Source of the DNA: Caldimicrobium thiodismutans
Lineage (GTDB): Bacteria > Desulfobacterota > Thermodesulfobacteria > Thermodesulfobacteriales > Thermodesulfobacteriaceae
NCBI RefSeq assembly: GCF_001548275.1
Contig: NZ_AP014945.1
Span: 1,050,001-1,082,000 of the forward strand
Length of the DNA stretch: 32,000 nt
Direction: 5' to 3'
The number at the start of each line of letters is the position of its first letter. Positions within the stretch are counted from its first letter, which is position 1. The notes under the pieces were generated by a model. That model searched no databases. It was not told the origin of the DNA and saw nothing but the letters and a program-made list of their open reading frames with translations. This document shows positions 12,661 through 25,296 of this stretch, one piece after another. A program made the translations under genes and the position numbers.

Positions 12661-13968
12661 ATGCCTGATACCCTTAAAAATCAAGCTAAAAAGGGAGTAG
12701 TTACTGAGGAGATTAGGCTCTGTGCTGAAGCAGAAGGCCTCTCACCTGAGACCTTAGTTAATCAAATAGCTAAAGGGGAAGTTGTTCTTTGTAAGAACAA
12801 AAAAGCCAAGCTTTCAAAGCCCTGTGCTATTGGTAAAGGCTTAAAAACCAAGGTAAATGTGAATATTGGCACATCCAAAGACCGTCCTTATATTGAAGAG
12901 GAACTTAAAAAACTTGAAATTGCCCTTAGATACGGCACAGATGCAGTTATGGATCTTTCAACAGGTGGCCCTATTGATGAAATAAGAAAGGCTATTCGGG
13001 AGGCCTGTCCTGTTCCCCTTGGAACAGTTCCCATCTATCAAGCTGCCCTTGAGGCTGTTGAAAAACATAAAAAATCCATAGTGGAAATGACGGTTTCCGA
13101 AATCTTTGAGGTTATTCAAAAACAAGCAGAAGATGGCATTGACTTTATGACTGTGCACTGCGGAATTACTAAACATACCTTAGAGAGGCTTAAAAACAAG
13201 GAAAGAATCCTTGGTGTGGTTTCAAGGGGGGGCTCCTTTATAGTGGAATGGATGGTTTACAATAACAGGGAAAATCCTCTTTATGAGTATTTTGATGAGC
13301 TCCTTGATATAGCCTCAGCCTATGATATTACCCTTTCCCTTGGAGATGGAATCAGACCTGGATGTATAGCAGATGCAACCGATGGCCCCCAGATTCAAGA
13401 ATTAATTATTCTTGGAGAATTAACCTTGAGGGCCTGGGAAAGAGGGGTTCAAGTGATGATTGAAGGCCCTGGGCATGTTCCCTTAGATCAGATTACTGCT
13501 AATGTGAAACTTCAAAAAAGGCTCTGCCACAATGCTCCCTTTTATGTGCTCGGGCCTTTACCCACAGATATTGCCCCAGGCTATGATCACATAGTGGGTG
13601 CCATAGGAGGAGCCATTGCTGCAAGTGCCGGGGCTGATTTTCTTTGCTACTTAACTCCTGCTGAGCACTTGAGACTTCCCACCCTTGAAGATGTTAAAGA
13701 AGGCCTTATTGCCTCAAAAATTGCTGCTCATGTGGCAGATCTTGTGAAGGGAGTCAAAGGGGCCTGGGAATGGGATCTTGAAATGGCTAAAGCAAGAGCC
13801 CAACTTGACTGGGAACGCCAGATTGAACTTTCCATTGACCCAGAAAAAGCCCGTAAATATCGCCTTGAAGGTGGTATTTCAAGAAGTAAAGCCTGCTCTA
13901 TGTGCGGAGAATACTGCGCTATAAAAATCTATGAACATGCCTATAAGTTTTTAAAAGGCGCCCATTGA
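12661..13968 (+). CDS. thiC: Phosphomethylpyrimidine synthase ThiC (radical SAM)
   Basis: Conserved ThiC blocks (VNVNIGTS, DAVMDLSTGG, MTVHCG, MIEGPGHVP) and the C-terminal cluster motif CSMCGEYC. Start moved to ATG 12661, 9 nt after AAGGAG (12646-12651). The track start is TTG 12652. Confidence 0.92.
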   Translation: MPDTLKNQAKKGVVTEEIRLCAEAEGLSPETLVNQIAKGEVVLCKNKKAKLSKPCAIGKGLKTKVNVNIGTSKDRPYIEEELKKLEIALRYGTDAVMDLSTGGPIDEIRKAIREACPVPLGTVPIYQAALEAVEKHKKSIVEMTVSEIFEVIQKQAEDGIDFMTVHCGITKHTLERLKNKERILGVVSRGGSFIVEWMVYNNRENPLYEYFDELLDIASAYDITLSLGDGIRPGCIADATDGPQIQELIILGELTLRAWERGVQVMIEGPGHVPLDQITANVKLQKRLCHNAPFYVLGPLPTDIAPGYDHIVGAIGGAIAASAGADFLCYLTPAEHLRLPTLEDVKEGLIASKIAAHVADLVKGVKGAWEWDLEMAKARAQLDWERQIELSIDPEKARKYRLEGGISRSKACSMCGEYCAIKIYEHAYKFLKGAH

Positions 13969-14373
13969 ATGAGCCCTTAACGCAGTTAAGACCTCTTTAA
14001 AAATTTGATAATAAATATCTTTTTTTATTTCTTTGTAATATTTTTTGGCTGTTTCTTCATCATAAATCTGAACCAGAAATTTTCTTATAAGAAGCATTTC
14101 ATAGAGGTTTTCTTCATAATCCTGAGAAATAAGACCTTCCTTTAATAAAGATTCAAAACAACTTCTTGGGGAATAACATTCAATCCCGCGAAGGCACAAA
14201 AATTCCTTTATTGCCTTCCACATGGCTTCAAAGGTGTATTCAAATCTCTTGGTTAAAATCTCAATTTGAAAGTCCTCACTGAAAACTTCCTCAAATAGAG
14301 GATTTCCTAAGATTTCTTCAAATTTTCTAAATGCTCTCTCAAAGCGCTCAAGGCTCCTTCTGAACTTTTCCAT
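13951..14373 (-). CDS. Nucleotidyltransferase substrate-binding protein, HI0074 family (HEPN-superfamily four-helix bundle)
   Basis: N-terminus MEKFRRSLERFERAFRKFEEIL and the block IRKFLVQIYDEETA align by eye to the family motif R-N-x-x-x-H-x-Y-D-E. It sits immediately downstream of the minimal nucleotidyltransferase. Confidence 0.7.
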   Translation of the reverse strand: MEKFRRSLERFERAFRKFEEILGNPLFEEVFSEDFQIEILTKRFEYTFEAMWKAIKEFLCLRGIECYSPRSCFESLLKEGLISQDYEENLYEMLLIRKFLVQIYDEETAKKYYKEIKKDIYYQIFKEVLTALRAHSMGAF

Positions 14374-14681
14374 ATATATCCCTCTGCAATAATTTTTTCT
14401 ATAAATTCGGGATTTTTTATTCTTTTGAGATCAACCACTTCTATGGTTCTCAAAAGAGGAAGCCCCTCAAGGGCTTTCTCAATCTCTGCCAGAATTTTTG
14501 CTGAAAGTTTTTCTGAAGAAAATATGGCTACATCAATATCTGATGTCCTTCCAAATCCTCCCTCTATAAGGGACCCAAAAAAGATAATAAGACTCTTCTC
14601 AGGCAATAACCTCTCTAGGCTCGCCCCAACAAGACCTAAAATTCTCTCTTTCTCCTCTTTTACCCTCTCTTTTTCCTTCAT
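14307..14681 (-). CDS. Minimal nucleotidyltransferase (MNT, HI0073-like)
   Basis: The motif GSLIEGGFGRTSDIDVAIF fits G-S-x(9-10)-D-x-D of the pol-beta-type NTase fold. Confidence 0.8.
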   Translation of the reverse strand: MKEKERVKEEKERILGLVGASLERLLPEKSLIIFFGSLIEGGFGRTSDIDVAIFSSEKLSAKILAEIEKALEGLPLLRTIEVVDLKRIKNPEFIEKIIAEGYIWKSSEGALSALREHLENLKKS

Positions 14682-14705: not shown

Positions 14706-16304
14706 CTAAGTTTTTAGTTTACTTTTTGCCTTAAATAGCTTTATTGAAGCTCTCATCTTTAGAAATCCCCTTGACTTTAACAGAAATAGAGCAAGAAGAA
14801 AAAGGAAACCAAGAAGTCCCCAGAAAGCAACTGCCCGAAAGGTTTCTTGAAAACCCCAGCTTAAGGCTTGAACATACTGGGCCTTATAAAGAAGGGCGGA
14901 AACCTTTTTCTCTGCAAGTTCACCCGAAAAAAATTTTTCTGCAAAATAAGTCTTTTCTTGCAAAAATTGTTTTACTATTCCATAATTTTGAAGCTCGGTT
15001 ATGCGCAAAAAATTTTCATTGGTGTAGTATTCCAGATGATTGGTTGCCAGAGCTGTTCCAAAGGAGCCTCCAACAAAACGCTGGTAATGCATAAGAACCA
15101 CTCCAAGGCCTGTTAAAGGCCCAAGTTTTCGTAAAGAAATGGCAGTAAGGGGCGCAAAAAAGGTGCCCATTGAAATCCCAAGGGGTATACAGAGAAGAGA
15201 GGACTTCCAGGCTGGTGTGTAATAATTAAGCTGAGGAATAAGATAATAACTGGTAAAGATAAATATAAGGGAACTGAAAAGAAGAATTCTTCCCGGGGCA
15301 AAGCGATCAGAAAGATATCCTGAGATAACACTGAACGTTCCTATAAAACAGGCAAAAACAAGAATGTGAACCCCTGCCTGAAAAGTAGTAAGCCCTTTAA
15401 GGTTTTCATAATAGAGGGGAAGAAGATAAAAAATCTGATACATTCCAAAGCCAAGGGTAAAAAAGTGCATTCCCATGGGAAGGCCAAATTCAGGAATTTT
15501 ATAAATAGAGAGATTAAGAAGGGGTTTTTTTGAAAGGAGTTCACTCAGTAAATAAAGGACAAATCCAATAAGACTTACAAAAAGAAGTATCAGAATTAGA
15601 TCAGATTGAAACCAGCCAAGCTGTTGCCCTTTTGAAAGCATGATAAGAAGGGAGGTTGTAGCAACGGCAATAAAGAGATAACTTAAGTAATTAAAGTGAA
15701 AGATCTTTGATCTTCCAAGTTCTTTGGGGAGGTAAAGAAGGGCTGCTAAGAAATTGAGGATACCCACAGGGATATTCACAAAGAAAACCCAGCGCCAGCT
15801 TAAGTGTTCTGTTATAAATCCGCCAAGGGTTGGGCCAAGGGCAGGGGCAAAGCTTACTCCAAGACCAAAAATCCCCATAGCAAGCCCTCTTCTTTGCGGT
15901 GGATAAGAGGCAATCAAAATAGTCTGAGCAGAGGCTGCAATGAAGGCTTCCCCCAAGCCCTGAACCACCCTGAAAAAAATCATCTGAGGAAGATTTTGGG
16001 CGGTTCCACAAAAAAAACTTGAAATAGTAAAAATACCAAGGCCTGTTATAAAGGTATAGGGATACCCTATGAATCTTGCAAAATTTTCAGTAAAAAGAAG
16101 TCCTGTTGCAGCTGCCATCATATAACTTGTTATAACCCACTGAATGCCATAAAGATCCGTAGATAAAGGCCCCATCATTTTAGGAACAACTATATCCACA
16201 ATGGTGGTATCAAGAATAGCCATAAAAAAACCTACCATCACAATGATAGTAATGAGAATTCTTTCAACCCTGATGATTCTCTGATGAAAGGTTTCAAAAT
16301 CCAT
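14706..16304 (-). CDS. MFS transporter, DHA2 (EmrB/QacA) family, about 14 TM
   Basis: The N-terminal region FMAILDTTIVDIVVPKM...LYGIQWVITSYMMAAA...GRRG-like loop is typical of DHA2. It is paired with an upstream HlyD adaptor. Confidence 0.85.
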   Translation of the reverse strand: MDFETFHQRIIRVERILITIIVMVGFFMAILDTTIVDIVVPKMMGPLSTDLYGIQWVITSYMMAAATGLLFTENFARFIGYPYTFITGLGIFTISSFFCGTAQNLPQMIFFRVVQGLGEAFIAASAQTILIASYPPQRRGLAMGIFGLGVSFAPALGPTLGGFITEHLSWRWVFFVNIPVGILNFLAALLYLPKELGRSKIFHFNYLSYLFIAVATTSLLIMLSKGQQLGWFQSDLILILLFVSLIGFVLYLLSELLSKKPLLNLSIYKIPEFGLPMGMHFFTLGFGMYQIFYLLPLYYENLKGLTTFQAGVHILVFACFIGTFSVISGYLSDRFAPGRILLFSSLIFIFTSYYLIPQLNYYTPAWKSSLLCIPLGISMGTFFAPLTAISLRKLGPLTGLGVVLMHYQRFVGGSFGTALATNHLEYYTNENFLRITELQNYGIVKQFLQEKTYFAEKFFSGELAEKKVSALLYKAQYVQALSWGFQETFRAVAFWGLLGFLFLLALFLLKSRGFLKMRASIKLFKAKSKLKT

Positions 16305-16309
16305 AATTT

Positions 16310-17440
16310 TTAACGGACTCTTTTTATTTCAACCTCGCCACCAAGCCCAACCTTTAGAAGACCTCTATCTCCTTTAGTAATTTTAATTTTAACTGGAATT
16401 CTTTGGGCAAGTTTGGTAAACTCTCCTGCGGAGATATCTCTCGGGACAAGGGCAAAGGTTGCAGCTGAAGCTGGAAGTATTTCTTCAACTTCTCCTTCCC
16501 AGACCTTTCCTGGATAGGCATCAAGCCTTATTCGGGCATAGGCTCCTTTTTTAATTCCCTTAAGCTTTGTCTCTTCAAGAAGAACAAGGATATAAAAGGA
16601 CTCAGGATCAACCACAACATAGATAGGCTCCCCTGGAGCAATTACATCTCCCTCTGAGTGAAATTTCTTGGCTATAACTCCTGTGATGGGACTTTTAAGT
16701 TTGGTGTATTCATAATAAAGAAGGGCTTCTTCTTTTTGTTTTAGAAGGGCTTTTTCCTTATACTTTAATGCCTCTATCTGGGAAGCCAAACTTTTTACAG
16801 TAAAGATTTCATTTTCCAAAAGGGTGCGCGTTTTCTCAAGAGCCTTTATATCTCTTTCAATGGAATTTAATAGTTCCTTTTCAGCCTCAAGCTGATGGTT
16901 TAGCTCTTTTTCTTCTGTTTCTTTGGCCTCAAGACTTTGTTGAGAAATAAGGCCCTCTTTATAAAGGTTTTCAAGCCTAAGTCTATCCTTTCTTACTAAA
17001 TCAAGTCTTGCCTTTATAGCCTCAAGCTTGGCAATTTGAGCCCTTTTCTTGGCCTGGAGAGACTCAAGCTGTTTTTGAATCTGCTCAATTTTAAGAATTA
17101 TTTCCCTTTCAAGTTTTCTCTTTGAATCAAAAAGAGAGGCCCTCTGAGAAGAAACCTCTTTTACTGACTCCTCAAGCTGGGTAACCCTTTTTTCATAATC
17201 AAAGGGTTCAAGCTCTGCAAGGATTTCGCCCTCCTTTATCCAATCTCCCTCTTTTTTGTATAGCTTGATTAATTTTCCATTAATCTTTGGGAAACTAACA
17301 TAGACCAAACGATCTGCCTGAACAAAAACCGCATCTGTTACCGCATAATGATATCTTTTCCAGATAAAATAACCAAAAAGTGAAAGAAAAAAGAGAAGAA
17401 AAAAACCAAGAATGTAAATCCCTATTTTCTTTTTTTGCAT
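16310..17440 (-). CDS. HlyD/EmrA-family periplasmic adaptor
   Basis: One N-terminal TM segment, a long coiled-coil, then barrel-sandwich and lipoyl-like segments (SPITGVIAK..., GMPV-like tail). Confidence 0.85.
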   Translation of the reverse strand: MQKKKIGIYILGFFLLFFLSLFGYFIWKRYHYAVTDAVFVQADRLVYVSFPKINGKLIKLYKKEGDWIKEGEILAELEPFDYEKRVTQLEESVKEVSSQRASLFDSKRKLEREIILKIEQIQKQLESLQAKKRAQIAKLEAIKARLDLVRKDRLRLENLYKEGLISQQSLEAKETEEKELNHQLEAEKELLNSIERDIKALEKTRTLLENEIFTVKSLASQIEALKYKEKALLKQKEEALLYYEYTKLKSPITGVIAKKFHSEGDVIAPGEPIYVVVDPESFYILVLLEETKLKGIKKGAYARIRLDAYPGKVWEGEVEEILPASAATFALVPRDISAGEFTKLAQRIPVKIKITKGDRGLLKVGLGGEVEIKRVR

Positions 17441-17484
17441 AAGCGCCTTCCTTTAAATTTATGTTAGTGCTTACTTAACTTTTA

Positions 17485-17512
17485 AGTCTAAAGATCTAAT
17501 TCTTTTTGTCAA
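17485..17512 (-). promoter_or_regulatory. Putative promoter of the HlyD-MFS operon (TTGACA-N16-TAGACT)
   Basis: Minus strand TTGACA 17512-17507 and TAGACT 17490-17485. Confidence 0.4.
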
Positions 17513-17552
17513 GGTTGTGTATGCGTCCAGGTCTTTTGAGACTTAAATAGTA

Positions 17553-17574
17553 GGGGTTTAAAATTTTAAACCCC
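17553..17574. promoter_or_regulatory. Perfect 22-bp palindrome GGGGTTTAAAATTTTAAACCCC in the divergent control region
   Basis: The sequence equals its own reverse complement and is followed on the + strand by TTGAATTTTTTT. It could be an operator or an insulating terminator. Confidence 0.5.
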
Positions 17575-17810
17575 TTGAATTTTTTTGTGGGTCTGTTGTA
17601 GCACAGACATTCTTGTCTGTGTTTCTTTCATACATTGGAGTGTAATTTACCTCCACAGGCAAGATTGCCTGTGTTACTTTTACAGACTTGTAAAGCCTCT
17701 CTTGTATAGATATCTAATTCCTCTTTTACCACCCTTCCTTTTTTCTTGTAAGGATCTGAACTTATGCAGGGTTGTAAATCTTCAAAGGACTAAGACTTAA
17801 AAATTCCCTC

Positions 17811-17838
17811 TTGACTTTTTCATTTTTATAAGTAATCT
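17811..17838 (+). promoter_or_regulatory. Putative promoter of the selenopeptide/rSAM operon (TTGACT-N16-TAATCT)
   Basis: Same geometry as the two tRNA promoters in this window. It would give a 5' UTR of about 45 nt before ATG 17888. Confidence 0.4.
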
Positions 17839-17887
17839 CAATTAGTAAAGCATTTTTAATTATTATAATTTATAAGGAGGTGGGCTT

Positions 17888-18064
17888 ATGAAGGAAAGTT
17901 TAAGAAAGAGTTTGGAGAGTATTAAGCTTGAAGGACTTTTAAAAGAGATTGCCTTTTCTGAAGCCCCTATGGCAACCCTTTTCCCAAAAGGGACCTCTTC
18001 TTGAGGCTCAAGCTGAGGCGATAAGCCCAAAAGGAGCGGAGTTTCCGCTCTGAAAAATAACTAA
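17888..18064 (+). CDS. Putative selenocysteine-containing RiPP precursor 1 (58 codons, in-frame TGA at 18002-18004 and 18014-18016)
   Basis: Strong Shine-Dalgarno sequence AAGGAGGTG 7 nt before the ATG. Read-through product MKESLRKSLESIKLEGLLKEIAFSEAPMATLFPKGTSS-U-GSS-U-GDKPKRSGVSALKNN ends at TAA 18062-18064. If TGA is a stop, the product is 38 aa (17888-18004). Confidence 0.6.
18034..18050 (+). promoter_or_regulatory. Candidate bacterial SECIS-like hairpin (GAGCGGA-GUU-UCCGCUC)
   Basis: Perfect 7-bp stem with apical loop GUU. The loop starts 24 nt after the second UGA and 36 nt after the first, which falls inside my recollection of the usual bacterial UGA-to-apical-loop distance. Confidence 0.4.
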
Positions 18065-18088
18065 ATCTTTTTTAAGGAGGTGAGGGCG

Positions 18089-18331
18089 ATGAATAAAGAA
18101 AACCTTAAATCAACTCTAAAAGGTGTGAGTATTTCTGCCCTTTTAACCCTGGCCTTGAGTATTGGAACTCCTTCTGTTAGCCTTTCTCAACAGGGTAGCT
18201 CTGGTTGAGGCGGAAGTCCTAAGAAGGGCGGTGGATCTGCCCCTGCAAAGGAACAGCCTGCTAAAAATGCAACTGATAACGAAACTAAAAAGGACACTAA
18301 AAAGCCCAAGGGTAAAAGTGGCTGAGGTTAA
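18089..18331 (+). CDS. Putative selenocysteine-containing RiPP precursor 2 (80 codons, in-frame TGA at 18206-18208 and 18323-18325)
   Basis: Shine-Dalgarno sequence AAGGAGGTG 8 nt before the ATG. Read-through product MNKENLKSTLKGVSISALLTLALSIGTPSVSLSQQGSSG-U-GGSPKKGGGSAPAKEQPAKNATDNETKKDTKKPKGKSG-U-G ends at TAA 18329-18331. If TGA is a stop, the product is 39 aa. Confidence 0.6.
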
Positions 18332-18347
18332 TCTTTAAAAGGCCTCT

Positions 18348-19664
18348 TTGAGGTCTTATCTTAAATTTATGCTCTATTTCCAGCTAAACCCCTCCCTTGA
18401 AATTTCAAGGGAGGGGAATGAATTTATATTGTCTTTTTTCCAAAATGCAACAAAAATTTTTATAAAAGCAGATCCTTGGGATTTACTTGTAATTAAAATT
18501 CTTATAGAAGAACTTGATCCTTTAGAATTATCAAAAAAAGAAAATCTCACATTATCACTTATACTTCAAGCTTTTCACTCAGGCTTTGAAAAGGGTTATC
18601 TCATTAGAGAGGAAAGTAAAATCGTAAGAAAAGAGCCCCCTTTTCAGAGAGCCTTTTTTCCTGACGATACCTTTAGGGTTGCTGAGGTTTTTACTTTACA
18701 GTGGCATCTAACCAATAGATGTGATCTTCATTGCAAACACTGTTATGATCGATCAAGTGTTTCGGAATTATCTTTAGAAGATAATTTCAGAATCCTTGAG
18801 GATTTCTTTAGATTCTGTTCAGATATGAAAGTTCATGGACAGATAAGTTTTTCCGGAGGAAATCCTTTTATGTATCCCCATTTCTTTGAGCTTTACAGGT
18901 CTGCTTCTGAGATGGGATTTAGCCTTGCAATTCTTGGAAACCCTGTCTCAGAAACCCTTCTTGAGAGGCTCTGTAATATAGAAACCCCTGTATATTATCA
19001 GGTAAGTCTTGAGGGCTTAGAAAAGACTAATGATGAGATTCGGGGAAAAGGTCATTTTCAAAGAACTATTAAATTTTTAAAAATACTTAAAGATTTTGAA
19101 GTTCCCTCGGGAGTTATGATGACTGTTCACGAAAAAAATCTTGATGAGCTCATTCCCCTTGCTAAATATCTTGAGGGAAGGGTTGAGGTTTTTTCTTTTA
19201 ATAGGCTTTCTCTTTTCGGTGAAGGTAAAAAACTATCTCCTTCTGAAAGGGAAAAATTTTTTAAAGTTCTTGAAGAATACCTTGAGCTTTCTTTTGAATT
19301 GCCCTATCTTTCCCTTAAAGATAATTTTTTTAATTTTTTTCTTTATAAGAAAGGGTTGCCCTTTTGTGGAGGGTGTACAGGTTTTGGATGTGGGGCAGCT
19401 TTCAATTTTCTCACTCTTTTACCCAATGGAGAGGTCCATGCCTGCAGAAAATTCCCATCTCCCTTGGGAAATATTTTAAATAAATCTCTCAGTGAGATCT
19501 ATCATTCTAAAGAAGCTGAACTTTATAGGCTTGGGCCTGAGGCCTGTAACAATTGTATCCTTTATGGAGTTTGTAGAGGTTGTCTTGCGGTGATTTCAAG
19601 CTTTGGTTTGGATCTTACTAAAGATAAAGATCCTTACTGTCCTGGAAAACTTATCTCCCCTTGA
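18348..19664 (+). CDS. Radical SAM/SPASM-domain peptide maturase (SbtM-like by context)
   Basis: CX3CX2C motif NRCDLHCKHCY. The C-terminal region has 9 Cys (CGGCTGFGC...HAC...ACNNCILYGVCRGC...YCP), typical of SPASM auxiliary clusters. About 100 aa precede the core and could be a peptide-recognition domain. The start is uncertain, either TTG 18348 or ATG 18369. Confidence 0.85.
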   Translation: MRSYLKFMLYFQLNPSLEISREGNEFILSFFQNATKIFIKADPWDLLVIKILIEELDPLELSKKENLTLSLILQAFHSGFEKGYLIREESKIVRKEPPFQRAFFPDDTFRVAEVFTLQWHLTNRCDLHCKHCYDRSSVSELSLEDNFRILEDFFRFCSDMKVHGQISFSGGNPFMYPHFFELYRSASEMGFSLAILGNPVSETLLERLCNIETPVYYQVSLEGLEKTNDEIRGKGHFQRTIKFLKILKDFEVPSGVMMTVHEKNLDELIPLAKYLEGRVEVFSFNRLSLFGEGKKLSPSEREKFFKVLEEYLELSFELPYLSLKDNFFNFFLYKKGLPFCGGCTGFGCGAAFNFLTLLPNGEVHACRKFPSPLGNILNKSLSEIYHSKEAELYRLGPEACNNCILYGVCRGCLAVISSFGLDLTKDKDPYCPGKLISP

Positions 19665-19688
19665 CAATATTTTAAATTCGTTTAATTT
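19661..19688 (+). promoter_or_regulatory. Putative promoter of tRNA-Gln (TTGACA-N16-TAATTT), with its -35 box overlapping the rSAM stop codon
   Basis: TTGACA 19661-19666 contains the TGA stop at 19662-19664. TAATTT at 19683-19688 lies 13 nt before the tRNA. Confidence 0.45.
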
Positions 19689-19701
19689 ATCTGATTAAGC
19701 T

Positions 19702-19773
19702 TGGGGGATCGTCTAATAGGCAGGACAGTGGACTCTGGATCCACGAGTGGAGGTTCGAGTCCTCCTCCCCCAG
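19702..19773 (+). tRNA. tRNA-Gln (anticodon CTG)
   Basis: Acceptor TGGGGGA/TCCCCCA (U1-A72, typical of tRNA-Gln), anticodon stem GTGGA/TCCAC with loop CT-CTG-GA, T-arm GGAGG-TTCGAGT-CCTCC. Confidence 0.9.
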
Positions 19774-19775
19774 CT

Positions 19776-20447
19776 TTAAGTTCTAATCATAGATAATCGG
19801 TGCGCTTCCCTTAAAGGTTCGGGCATTCTAAATTTAACTGCGGTTTTTAAAACCCATTCAACTGCCTCCTCTGGAGTAATAAGATTTCCAGGAGAAACAA
19901 AAAGAGGGCTTACTCCAGTCCTTGTTCTCACTACATAACCTGAAAGTTCTCCTGTAAGATAAACTGGAAGCTTTGACCCTCTTTCTTTTGGAAGTTCTCC
20001 CTCAAATTTAAGAAGAGGTTTTTTAGCACAACCGATAGTTGGAATCTCAAGTTCCACGCCAAGATGAACTGCAAGCCCTGCCTTTCTTGGATGAGCTATC
20101 CCCTGTCCATCAACAAGAATTAGATCCGGTCTATTCTTAAGCCTTTGAAAGACCTTAAGAAGAAGGGGAGCCTCCCTAAAGGATAAGTAACCCGGAATAT
20201 ATGGAAAGGTTATCTTCTCTATACTATCTACAGTTTCAATTATTTTAAACTCAGGATACCTCATCACTACTATGGCTCCTTTTGCCAGCCCATTTTCAAA
20301 ATACCCTACATCACATCCAGCTATTAATCCAGGTTCCCTTTCCAGAGGAAAAAGCTTCACTTTCTTTGAAAGCTTAATTTGAAACTCTTTTAACTCCTCA
20401 ACCATCATAGCTTCAAAACTTTTTTGCCTAAGTTCTTCTTCTTTCAA
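19776..20447 (-). CDS. nfi: Endonuclease V (deoxyinosine 3' endonuclease)
   Basis: Conserved blocks AGCDVGY, LVDGQGIAHPRKAGLAVHLGV and PTIGCAK. TTG start preceded by GGGGGAG. Confidence 0.88.
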   Translation of the reverse strand: MKEEELRQKSFEAMMVEELKEFQIKLSKKVKLFPLEREPGLIAGCDVGYFENGLAKGAIVVMRYPEFKIIETVDSIEKITFPYIPGYLSFREAPLLLKVFQRLKNRPDLILVDGQGIAHPRKAGLAVHLGVELEIPTIGCAKKPLLKFEGELPKERGSKLPVYLTGELSGYVVRTRTGVSPLFVSPGNLITPEEAVEWVLKTAVKFRMPEPLREAHRLSMIRT

Positions 20448-24672: not shown

Positions 24673-25296
24673 TTATTTTTTGGTTGATGTTCCTGTTTTA
24701 CTTGTTTCCTTGGACTTGGGGGCTTCACTTTTTGGAGCTGGGCTTACTCCTTTTCCTTTGGTTTCATCATAATGCCTATTAAAAAGATCAACAATAACAG
24801 GAGAAATATCCACTTTTGGAGAGACATAATAAATACCGGGTTGTCCTCTTTCCATAATTAAATCATATTTTTCCTTTTCTACATAGCTTTTAATAATTCC
24901 TTCCAGTTCTTTAAAAATAGGGTCAAGGAGCTTTTTTTCGTATTCCTGCATTTCAAATTGAGCATCCTCTTGTAAGGTCTTAAGCTCTCTTAATTTTTTC
25001 TGATACTCACTCTGTTTCTTTTCTCTCATATCTGCTGACCAGAGCTGACTTTTTTTCTCAATCTCATCTTTTAGGGCTTCAAGCTCCTTTCCTTTGGCCT
25101 CAAGTTTGGCCTGAAGTTCTTCATACTTCTTTTGAAGTTTTTCCATAACTTCCTGGCCATACTTTGAGGTATTAATAACCCTTTTAATGTCAATCATTCC
25201 GATTTTTACAGTTTCCTGTTGTGCCAAAGCCACTCCATTAAATTGGACTAAACTTAAAATTAAAAATCCAAAGAATAAAGCAAATCCTCTGTTCAT
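24673..25296 (-). CDS. skp: Periplasmic chaperone Skp/OmpH family
   Basis: Signal peptide followed by KIGMIDIKRVINTSKYGQE... and a long charged coiled-coil region typical of OmpH/Skp. Confidence 0.75.
   Translation of the reverse strand: MNRGFALFFGFLILSLVQFNGVALAQQETVKIGMIDIKRVINTSKYGQEVMEKLQKKYEELQAKLEAKGKELEALKDEIEKKSQLWSADMREKKQSEYQKKLRELKTLQEDAQFEMQEYEKKLLDPIFKELEGIIKSYVEKEKYDLIMERGQPGIYYVSPKVDISPVIVDLFNRHYDETKGKGVSPAPKSEAPKSKETSKTGTSTKK

Follow-up and report, generated by a model that had tools for sequence, protein, structure and literature searches.

The SbtA/SbtM system, formerly the 'selenobiotic' family, is said to have been described by Haft and Basu in 2011 and by Lewis et al. 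in 2021 (Biochemistry 60:3347), and yields thio(seleno)oxazole-bearing peptides that are made by ribosomes and modified after translation (RiPPs). Here we analyse a locus of this kind in a 32,000-nucleotide stretch of the Caldimicrobium thiodismutans genome (hereafter the window; contig NZ_AP014945.1, positions 1,050,001 to 1,082,000, with all coordinates below counted from its first letter). The locus comprises sbtA (18089..18331, forward strand), an 80-codon precursor gene that very probably has selenocysteine (Sec in peptide motifs, U in one-letter code) at codons 40 and 79 and ends in Gly-Sec-Gly-TAA, and sbtM (18369..19664, forward strand), encoding a radical S-adenosylmethionine (SAM)/SPASM thio(seleno)oxazole maturase of 431 aa. 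SbtM enzymes take four hydrogens from Gly-Cys or Gly-Sec to form a 5-thio- or 5-seleno-oxazole, chemistry credited to the Bandarian laboratory (2021), and two or more Sec residues, placed in G-U-G-type motifs, are believed to be present in natural SbtA precursors (PMC9204691, PMC11002830, PMC13638132). Like the described members, the window locus has a precursor that passes the SbtA model, an adjacent SbtM, repeated Gly-Sec-Gly in a low-complexity linker, a candidate selenocysteine insertion sequence (SECIS) hairpin behind every UGA, and a cluster reduced to precursor plus maturase. It differs from them in its Thermodesulfobacteriaceae ancestry, its short SbtM, its two Sec sites only, an n-region three residues longer, the lack of a lipobox Cys, the UUU loop of the terminal hairpin, and an upstream second precursor with a different leader.

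Functional parallels are found among copper-binding and lipid-anchored RiPPs. Bufferins carry functional signal peptides of the general secretory (Sec) pathway and copper-binding 5-thiooxazoles (PMC11626156), and lipoprotein forms occur among oxazolins and chryseobasin-like peptides; the mining that brought up bufferins and oxazolins took in MNIO-associated peptides only and no radical SAM ones (PMC11626156, PMC13056109). What they would share with SbtA is the replacement of classical leaders by Sec-pathway or lipoprotein signals, the formation of 5-thio-oxazole from Cys and the absence of any need for a dedicated exporter, and the EGKCG repeats of oxazolins resemble the repeated SGUGG of SbtA. 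Conversely, they depend on multinuclear iron enzymes that need oxygen and pair with a DUF2063 partner, and on Cys, where SbtA has an anaerobic radical SAM/SPASM enzyme and Sec; neither MNIO (DUF692) nor DUF2063 was among the NCBIfam matches of window open reading frames (ORFs) of at least 120 aa. Sequence homology was neither found nor expected, and the likeness is one of function, not of membership. A further parallel is the anaerobic sulfatase-maturating enzyme (anSME), which is likewise cytoplasmic and of the SPASM radical SAM type, and which oxidises a Cys beta-carbon in a substrate with a Sec-pathway signal, exported afterwards. The chemistry of SbtM has been proposed to open with the same thioaldehyde step (PMC9204691, PMC13638132). 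The product of anSME is formylglycine in a folded sulfatase rather than an oxazole in a small peptide, and the window enzyme scores as SbtM and not as anSME.

Family identity of the operon

The sbtA ORF translates as MNKENLKSTLKGVSISALLTLALSIGTPSVSLSQQGSSG-U-GGSPKKGGGSAPAKEQPAKNATDNETKKDTKKPKGKSG-U-G-stop, with its TAA at 18329-18331 and a Shine-Dalgarno sequence GGAGG (18076..18080, forward strand, read from the sequence) 8 nt 5' of ATG 18089. Its N-terminus scores 32.1 bits (cutoff 30.5) against TIGR04081, the NCBIfam model entitled 'SbtA family thio(seleno)oxazole RiPP natural product precursor', with residues 1-28 lying on positions 1-27 of the 27-position profile, which is confined to the leader region; the 39-aa form truncated at the first UGA scores 33.9 bits. 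The core contains the Gly-Sec-Gly-type motifs S-S-G-U-G-G and K-S-G-U-G within a low-complexity region. On the same strand, starting 37 nt past the sbtA stop, sbtM encodes a protein that reaches 558.8 bits (cutoff 350) against TIGR04082, 'thio(seleno)oxazole modification radical SAM maturase SbtM' in NCBIfam, matches the Pfam domains Radical_SAM and SPASM, and is 100% identical to the NCBI entry 'SbtM [Caldimicrobium thiodismutans]' of 431 aa. Since both TIGR04081 and the adjacent TIGR04082 are passed, sbtA belongs to a RiPP family that is already known and curated, a membership established by comparison of sequences. The first-pass annotation, made from the letters of the window, had already proposed a selenopeptide precursor beside a radical SAM maturase, an idea that these two models bear out; it did not see that the SbtA family was already known and curated.

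Other searches were less informative for the precursors. Neither sbtA nor the upstream precursor matched Pfam, a protein look-up with full-length SbtA carrying X at its Sec positions returned no match, and the Pfam entry 'GSU1558_StbA-like' (PF27804) was listed for one sbtA orthologue in a contig index. A protein search with SbtM, by comparison, returned more than 3,000 relatives, many of them under the older name 'selenobiotic family peptide radical SAM maturase'. A 58-aa ORF that overlaps sbtA in another frame (18162-18338) was rejected as a gene candidate: it has neither a Shine-Dalgarno sequence nor family support, and it is interrupted upstream in the closest related locus.

Probable selenocysteine at two UGA codons

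Readthrough was assessed by comparison with relatives. Eighty loci were fetched with SbtM and yielded 52 SbtA-like peptides, the window peptide counted in. The closest is L001, a Thermodesulfobacteriaceae metagenome-assembled genome (MAG) whose SbtM is 82% identical to that of the window; L082 and L083 belong to the Caldimicrobium clade, and L081, L084 and L087 to the Thermosulfurimonas clade. The first in-frame UGA (18206..18208, forward strand; Sec40 in S-S-G-U-G-G) stays TGA in all six of these loci. The second (18323..18325, forward strand) would encode Sec79, the penultimate residue of K-S-G-U-G-stop, and an ending GKSG-U-(G/A)-stop is kept in seven orthologous loci, including L081, L082, L083, L084 and L087. 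L001 retains all four TGAs of both precursors, their frames and the G-TAA end, and differs from the window by a one-codon in-frame indel; downstream of the leader the two have 14 synonymous and 7 non-synonymous codon differences, and the Gly codon after the last TGA has changed synonymously from GGT to GGC, again followed by TAA. In all Caldimicrobium-clade loci TAA stands immediately after this Gly codon. Across the family, sites of the form [GS][UC][GS] number 1-6 per peptide, at least two of them in 51 of the 52 peptides, with the last near the C-terminus and sometimes holding Cys. Sec and Cys alternate at homologous sites, the classical signature of selenoproteins, which supports UGA as a Sec codon; some SbtA homologues have only Cys (L011, L014, L070, L071) and others a mixture of both (L018, L023, L034, L057, L066).

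Both UGAs of sbtA are therefore very probably Sec codons, as far as comparative sequence data can tell, the terminal one somewhat less certainly so. The ending ...KGKSG-U-G-stop with penultimate Sec, which the first-pass annotation had read from the window, agrees with the translation and is kept in orthologues. Orthologues that end at the first TGA and lack the downstream basic region, named in that annotation as evidence that would count against it, were not seen; their frames run on past this TGA and keep the basic region. Public gene calls do present the gene as if it ended at the first TGA, with the in-frame remainder non-coding: collections of NCBI and JGI list the exact 39-aa product as 'hypothetical protein', the name also given to a 38-aa truncation of the upstream precursor, and both Logan gene calls (L082/L083) and NCBI gene calls (L085/L086) stop there. 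We find such an end hardly credible given that the frame, the in-frame indel, the synonymous excess and the terminal motif are all conserved past this TGA, and that more than 50 homologues share the same architecture in a family curated as selenoprotein precursors.

The RNA downstream of each UGA points in the same direction. Hairpin 1 (18226..18242, forward strand; GGGCGG-UGGAU-CUGCCC) has a 6-bp stem, GGGCGG/CUGCCC with one G-U pair, and a loop UGGAU, begins 17 nt past the first UGA and encodes K-K-G-G-G-x-A. Hairpin 2 (18339..18357, forward strand; AAGGCCUC-UUU-GAGGUCUU) lies in the spacer between sbtA and sbtM, has 8 bp, begins 13 nt past the second UGA and folds with z = -2.5 for its 60-nt segment. 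These are the positions where SECIS elements of the family sit, and to this extent the candidate structures of the first-pass annotation hold, coordinates included; its first stem is in fact one of 6 bp, and its spacing of 22 nt approximates the distance from UGA to the loops, the stems themselves lying 17 and 13 nt away. Among the 52 family peptides a hairpin of at least 5 bp follows 126 of 139 UGA sites, against 30 of 56 Cys-codon sites, with stems mostly starting 10-15 nt downstream of the UGA. A G[G/U] early in the loop (AGGUA, GGU, AGGUG and others) occurs in 106 of the 126 UGA-site hairpins and 10 of the 30 Cys-site ones, and z-scores at the two kinds of site differ with a Mann-Whitney p = 8e-10, a value to be read with the sites not being phylogenetically independent. 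By a SECIS criterion of a stem about 11 nt (here 10-17) after the UGA, an apical loop 16-37 nt downstream and G or GU in the loop, site 1 fits (17 nt, UGGAU) and site 2 has the correct geometry (13 nt), but its UUU loop has no G. A search of Rfam at the gathering threshold returned tRNAs only, with chance-level matches around the hairpins.

For hairpin 1, 97% of cells pair across six orthologues, versus 42-56% with a slid partner, and there is one compensatory change from G-C to U-A. Covariation judged by shuffling falls short of significance, the observed value being reached in 166 of 500 shuffles, as the majority of columns show no variation. At the terminal UGA, hairpins with unrelated stems stand 11-13 nt downstream in four lineages: GGCCUC/GAGGUC in the window, CCCCG/CGGGG with a loop GUG, AGGCCU/AGGCCU with GGU, and GGGCCU/AGGCCC with GGUC. 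In L083 a U-A pair of hairpin 2 has become U-G. Support for the predicted hairpins comes from the slid-partner control and from these unrelated stems. The linker motifs KKGGGxA of the window and GAGST of other members are the translated SECIS stems (GGCGGUGGANCNGCC and GGUGCAGGUAGCACC), so that the Gly-rich motifs reflect in part an RNA constraint besides peptide function; the Gly-rich parts of the linker would have been shaped at least partly by encoding these hairpins. Thermodesulfobacteriaceae SbtA linkers also show conserved sequon-like N-A-T / N-E-T repeats, seen as KNATDNET in the window (18263-18283), with the counterpart ENATKNATENATENATE in T. marina (L084:2219 onwards, L085:2352 onwards).

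Were the second TGA (18323) a true stop, the peptide would have one Sec and end ...KGKSG, and hairpin 2 would be a stem that stabilises or attenuates the mRNA between precursor and maturase genes. Stem-loops 3' of precursor genes are common in RiPP operons, the UUU loop lacks the usual SECIS G, and the NCBI annotation of the Thermosulfurimonas dismutans orthologue does stop at this TGA. This reading is nevertheless improbable. K-S-G-U-G repeats the internal core motif; the Gly codon behind the TGA shows the synonymous exchange GGT/GGC before a TAA constant in the Caldimicrobium clade; the ending GKSG-U-(G/A)-stop persists in seven loci; at least two motif sites are the rule in the family; orthologue loops at 11-12 nt past the terminal UGA are the canonical GGU, GGUC or GUG; and hairpin 2 was not flagged as an intrinsic terminator, a GC-rich stem with a T-run right behind it, in a scan of 17300-19900. 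Both UGAs read as Sec remains the interpretation that we follow below.

The T. dismutans call itself (L081:2680-2955) is an SbtA of 91 aa that passes the first TGA and ends at the second. Past that TGA follow G-TAA and, 12 nt later, a hairpin with the canonical GGUC loop, and the annotation is probably missing a terminal Sec-Gly. Because public gene calls stop at TGAs, the terminal Sec, which would make up half of the product's reactive groups, is invisible in databases.

A C-terminal Gly-Sec-Gly also recalls the Gly-Cys-Sec-Gly redox tail of mammalian thioredoxin reductase, an analogy drawn in the first-pass annotation, and one could picture the end of SbtA as such a tail with an unmodified selenol. 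The likeness is positional only, Sec being penultimate and followed by Gly in both, so that in both the SECIS must lie past the stop codon. SbtA differs in having no vicinal Cys, no flavoenzyme or other oxidoreductase domain, and a bacterial rather than eukaryotic type of SECIS; moreover S-G-U-G recurs internally as the presumptive substrate motif of SbtM, and a Gly-Sec-modifying maturase is encoded next door. We accordingly give the analogy very little credence.

Leader, proposed export and proposed product

Codons 1-33 (18089..18187, forward strand) resemble a signal peptide of the signal peptidase I type, judged by rules and by family comparison. The n-region MNKENLKSTLK has a net charge of +2 and is followed by a 22-residue stretch free of charged residues, His, Gln and Asn, with a best 12-residue Kyte-Doolittle mean of 2.09; the c-region TPSVSLS|QQ offers the cleavage motif S-L-S|QQ with Pro at -6. 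Rules for Sec-type signal peptides ask for a positively charged n-region, a hydrophobic h-region of 10-20 residues and small residues at -3 and -1, and the window leader shows these traits, in agreement with the earlier suggestion that the N-terminal third resembles such a signal with an S-L-S site. Orthologues have T-L-S|QQ, A-L-S|QS and V-L-A|QS at the corresponding position, and a secreted protein of the same genome (ORF 24673-25296) has ...ALA|QQ. Family leaders follow the pattern M-D/E-x-K-x-L-K-K-x-L-A-G, then some 18 residues that are hydrophobic or small. A lipobox Cys follows at position 29-30, in the context L-x-G/A-C, in roughly 30 of the 52 peptides (about 60%; 24 of 52 by a strict PROSITE-type pattern), and most of those that lack it show sites resembling A-x-A (AHA|G, TAA|S, VLA|Q) just before the first core motif. 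The window peptide, which has no Cys anywhere, does not contain the lipobox pattern [LVI][ASTVI][GAS]-Cys. In one homologue, from the Olavius algarvensis Delta 4 symbiont (L043:3287 onwards), the lipobox Cys position is itself a TGA (F-T-L-S-A-U-A-T-G-K), which could be selenocysteine at the lipidation site, or else reflect a pseudogene or an assembly error.

In the 80 loci sbtM is the sole conserved neighbour of sbtA, with no protease or transporter conserved there, which fits the general Sec machinery and signal peptidases doing that work. Sec-dependent export with cleavage after Ser33 is plausible, and the signal-peptide rules together with the family pattern support it well. The literature searched, in which the primary SbtA papers were not included, contained no statement on export by the SbtA leader, and the novelty of the idea is uncertain.

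The same N-terminal third might instead be a RiPP leader for SbtM, or an uncleaved membrane anchor, with no Sec export and an incidental likeness to signals. That the curated SbtA model covers exactly this 27-residue region is what a recognition leader would lead one to expect, and conservation of the leader (M-D-x-K-x-L-K-K-x-L-A-G...) is above what is usual for signal peptides. We regard this alternative as unlikely all the same: about 60% of members have a lipobox Cys at a fixed position where the hydrophobic stretch ends, with A-x-A-type sites in the rest, sbtM has no conserved neighbour that would be a dedicated protease or exporter, and the Sec signal peptide of bufferins is functional and yet dispensable for modification (PMC11626156). 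Recognition by SbtM and export are, in addition, not mutually exclusive roles for one leader.

For the two-precursor sbtA-sbtM operon of C. thiodismutans we propose a five-step scheme, to which, taken as a whole, we assign a probability of about 0.7. Ribosomes starting at ATG 18089 would insert Sec at UGA 18206 and UGA 18323, each by way of the downstream SECIS-type hairpin, as the comparison with relatives suggests. Cytoplasmic SbtM would then oxidise each Gly-Sec of the window SbtA to a 5-seleno-oxazole, a reaction seen in vitro with another SbtM and assigned here from family membership. The 33-residue N-terminus would serve as a Sec-pathway signal, cut by signal peptidase I after S-L-S according to the rules and the family pattern. 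By this third step the periplasm would receive a Lys-rich peptide of 47 residues, with 10 Lys, a net charge of about +6 and one selenooxazole near each end. As a fourth step, this product would most likely bind soft metal ions such as copper, by analogy only with bufferins and oxazolins, whose 5-thiooxazole peptides are likewise Sec-exported or lipid-anchored. The fifth element is the linker, whose Gly-rich parts would owe their form in some measure to the SECIS hairpin that they encode, besides peptide function.

Several points weigh against the scheme. The window peptide barely passes the TIGR04081 cutoff, and its closest orthologue, that of L001, scores 24 bits, below it. The second UGA is treated as a stop in the NCBI annotation of the T. 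dismutans orthologue, and the loop behind it in the window, UUU, lacks the family-typical G/GU, being shared among the 126 hairpins by the window and L001 only. No gene of selenium metabolism, be it selA, selB or selD, and no tRNA-Sec gene lies within the window. SbtM is without the N-terminal 80-100 residues or so of the TIGR04082 profile, because of which substrate recognition may differ. Finally, the metal-binding role of the product has analogy as its sole basis. We see an even chance for a more far-reaching reading, namely that the SbtA leader is a genuine Sec signal (of the signal peptidase I type here and with a lipobox in most relatives), that selenooxazole peptides are periplasmic or lipid-anchored metal binders, that the penultimate Sec is real but has been missed, and that the Caldimicrobium clade combines a short SbtM with a signal-less second precursor.

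The maturase, the second precursor and the neighbourhood

The start of sbtM is best placed at ATG 18369. The first-pass annotation had considered a TTG at 18348, which is probably not the start: in L001 a stop codon stands between that site and the conserved ATG, the NCBI 431-aa SbtM corresponds to ATG 18369, and in the N-terminal alignment the protein begins at a conserved N-P-S/T-L motif. In the window clade SbtM has 431 aa, against about 520-550 aa elsewhere, and it also lacks a ~25-residue insert of the longer SbtMs. In the long SbtMs the extra N-terminal region, to which Pfam assigns no family, may be where the leader is bound. SbtM relatives in the 80 loci come from MAGs labelled Desulfobacterota, Nitrospirota, Omnitrophota, Brocadiaceae, Chloroflexota and Gammaproteobacteria, a far wider distribution than the Geobacter and Desulfobacteria given in a 2022 perspective (PMC9204691).

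With the start at ATG 18369, hairpin 2 ends 11 nt before the start codon and does not overlap it, contrary to the earlier proposal of such an overlap, one that could couple Sec decoding to maturase translation. A Sec-specific switch on maturase initiation is likewise unsupported, because the two stops, UGA 18323 and TAA 18329, are only 6 nt apart. What may survive of the proposal is ordinary translational coupling through unwinding of hairpin 2, because the only Shine-Dalgarno-like GAGG upstream of sbtM sits within its 3' arm, 15 nt 5' of the ATG; in several orthologues a G-rich 3' arm lies 5-17 nt before the sbtM start. Within sbtM, codons 8-16 contain a perfect 12-bp GC-rich hairpin, CCCCUCCCUUGA/UCAAGGGAGGGG (18389..18416, forward strand, from folding), with z = -4.7 and -5.5 in two folds; no internal 75-nt segment of the gene is as stable. 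The hairpin is kept in L001 and L083, coincides with the place of the ~25-residue insert in longer SbtMs, was not flagged in the terminator scan, and possibly serves translation attenuation or mRNA processing.

Adjoining sbtA upstream is precursor 1 (17888..18064, forward strand), a 58-codon ORF with a tandem S-S-U-G-S-S-U-G that translates as MKESLRKSLESIKLEGLLKEIAFSEAPMATLFPKGTSS-U-GSS-U-GDKPKRSGVSALKNN. Its two UGAs, 12 nt apart, are followed by one strong hairpin, GGAGCGGA-GUU-UCCGCUCU (18033-18051), in which L083 shows one compensatory change from G-C to A-U. No TIGR04081 match, SbtA leader or hydrophobic segment was found in precursor 1, which is confined to the Caldimicrobium clade (the window locus, L001, L082 and L083) and may represent a second, non-exported class of substrate of the same SbtM. 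Divergent from the operon and upstream of it in these same four loci is an EmrA/EmrB-like pump (14706-17440, reverse strand; an MFS transporter with an HlyD-type adaptor), which, like precursor 1, is absent from the Thermosulfurimonas-clade loci. It could be an exporter for the product of precursor 1, or plain synteny among close relatives.

Membership in the cluster was rejected for this pump, endonuclease V, an M16 peptidase fusion and ThiC; beyond the Caldimicrobium clade, sbtM has none of them as a neighbour. Elsewhere the window carries pstSCAB, murJ, thiC, a CPA2 antiporter, an MntA/HepT-like pair, nfi, the M16 peptidase fusion, tsaE, glk, pal, crcB and ftsY, of housekeeping character. 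Overlapping small ORFs at 13951-14681 (reverse strand) match an HI0074-family nucleotidyltransferase substrate-binding subunit and an MntA-type adenylyltransferase antitoxin, both below the curated cutoffs, which suggests a type VII toxin-antitoxin pair.

The sbtA gene in itself is unsurprising, its family being curated; the locus is of value mainly for the idea of export, for a terminal Sec missing from annotations, and for a short SbtM that is peculiar to the clade and accompanied by a second precursor. C. thiodismutans is a thermophile available in culture, and its operon is compact, with two precursors and a minimal SbtM, which makes it a convenient system for work on these points. For the role of SbtA products, the leader and lipobox pattern across the family, taken with the lack of a conserved exporter or protease, leads to the testable hypothesis of a periplasmic or membrane-anchored selenooxazole metallophore, which would tie the SbtA family to the bufferin, oxazolin and RiPP-lipoprotein systems. 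If this is true, only sbtA and sbtM are conserved together because general export and cleavage machinery is used, and in anaerobes selenooxazole peptides would be the counterpart to bufferins, oxazolins and 'DAG-RiPPs', made by radical SAM enzymes and with the use of selenium.

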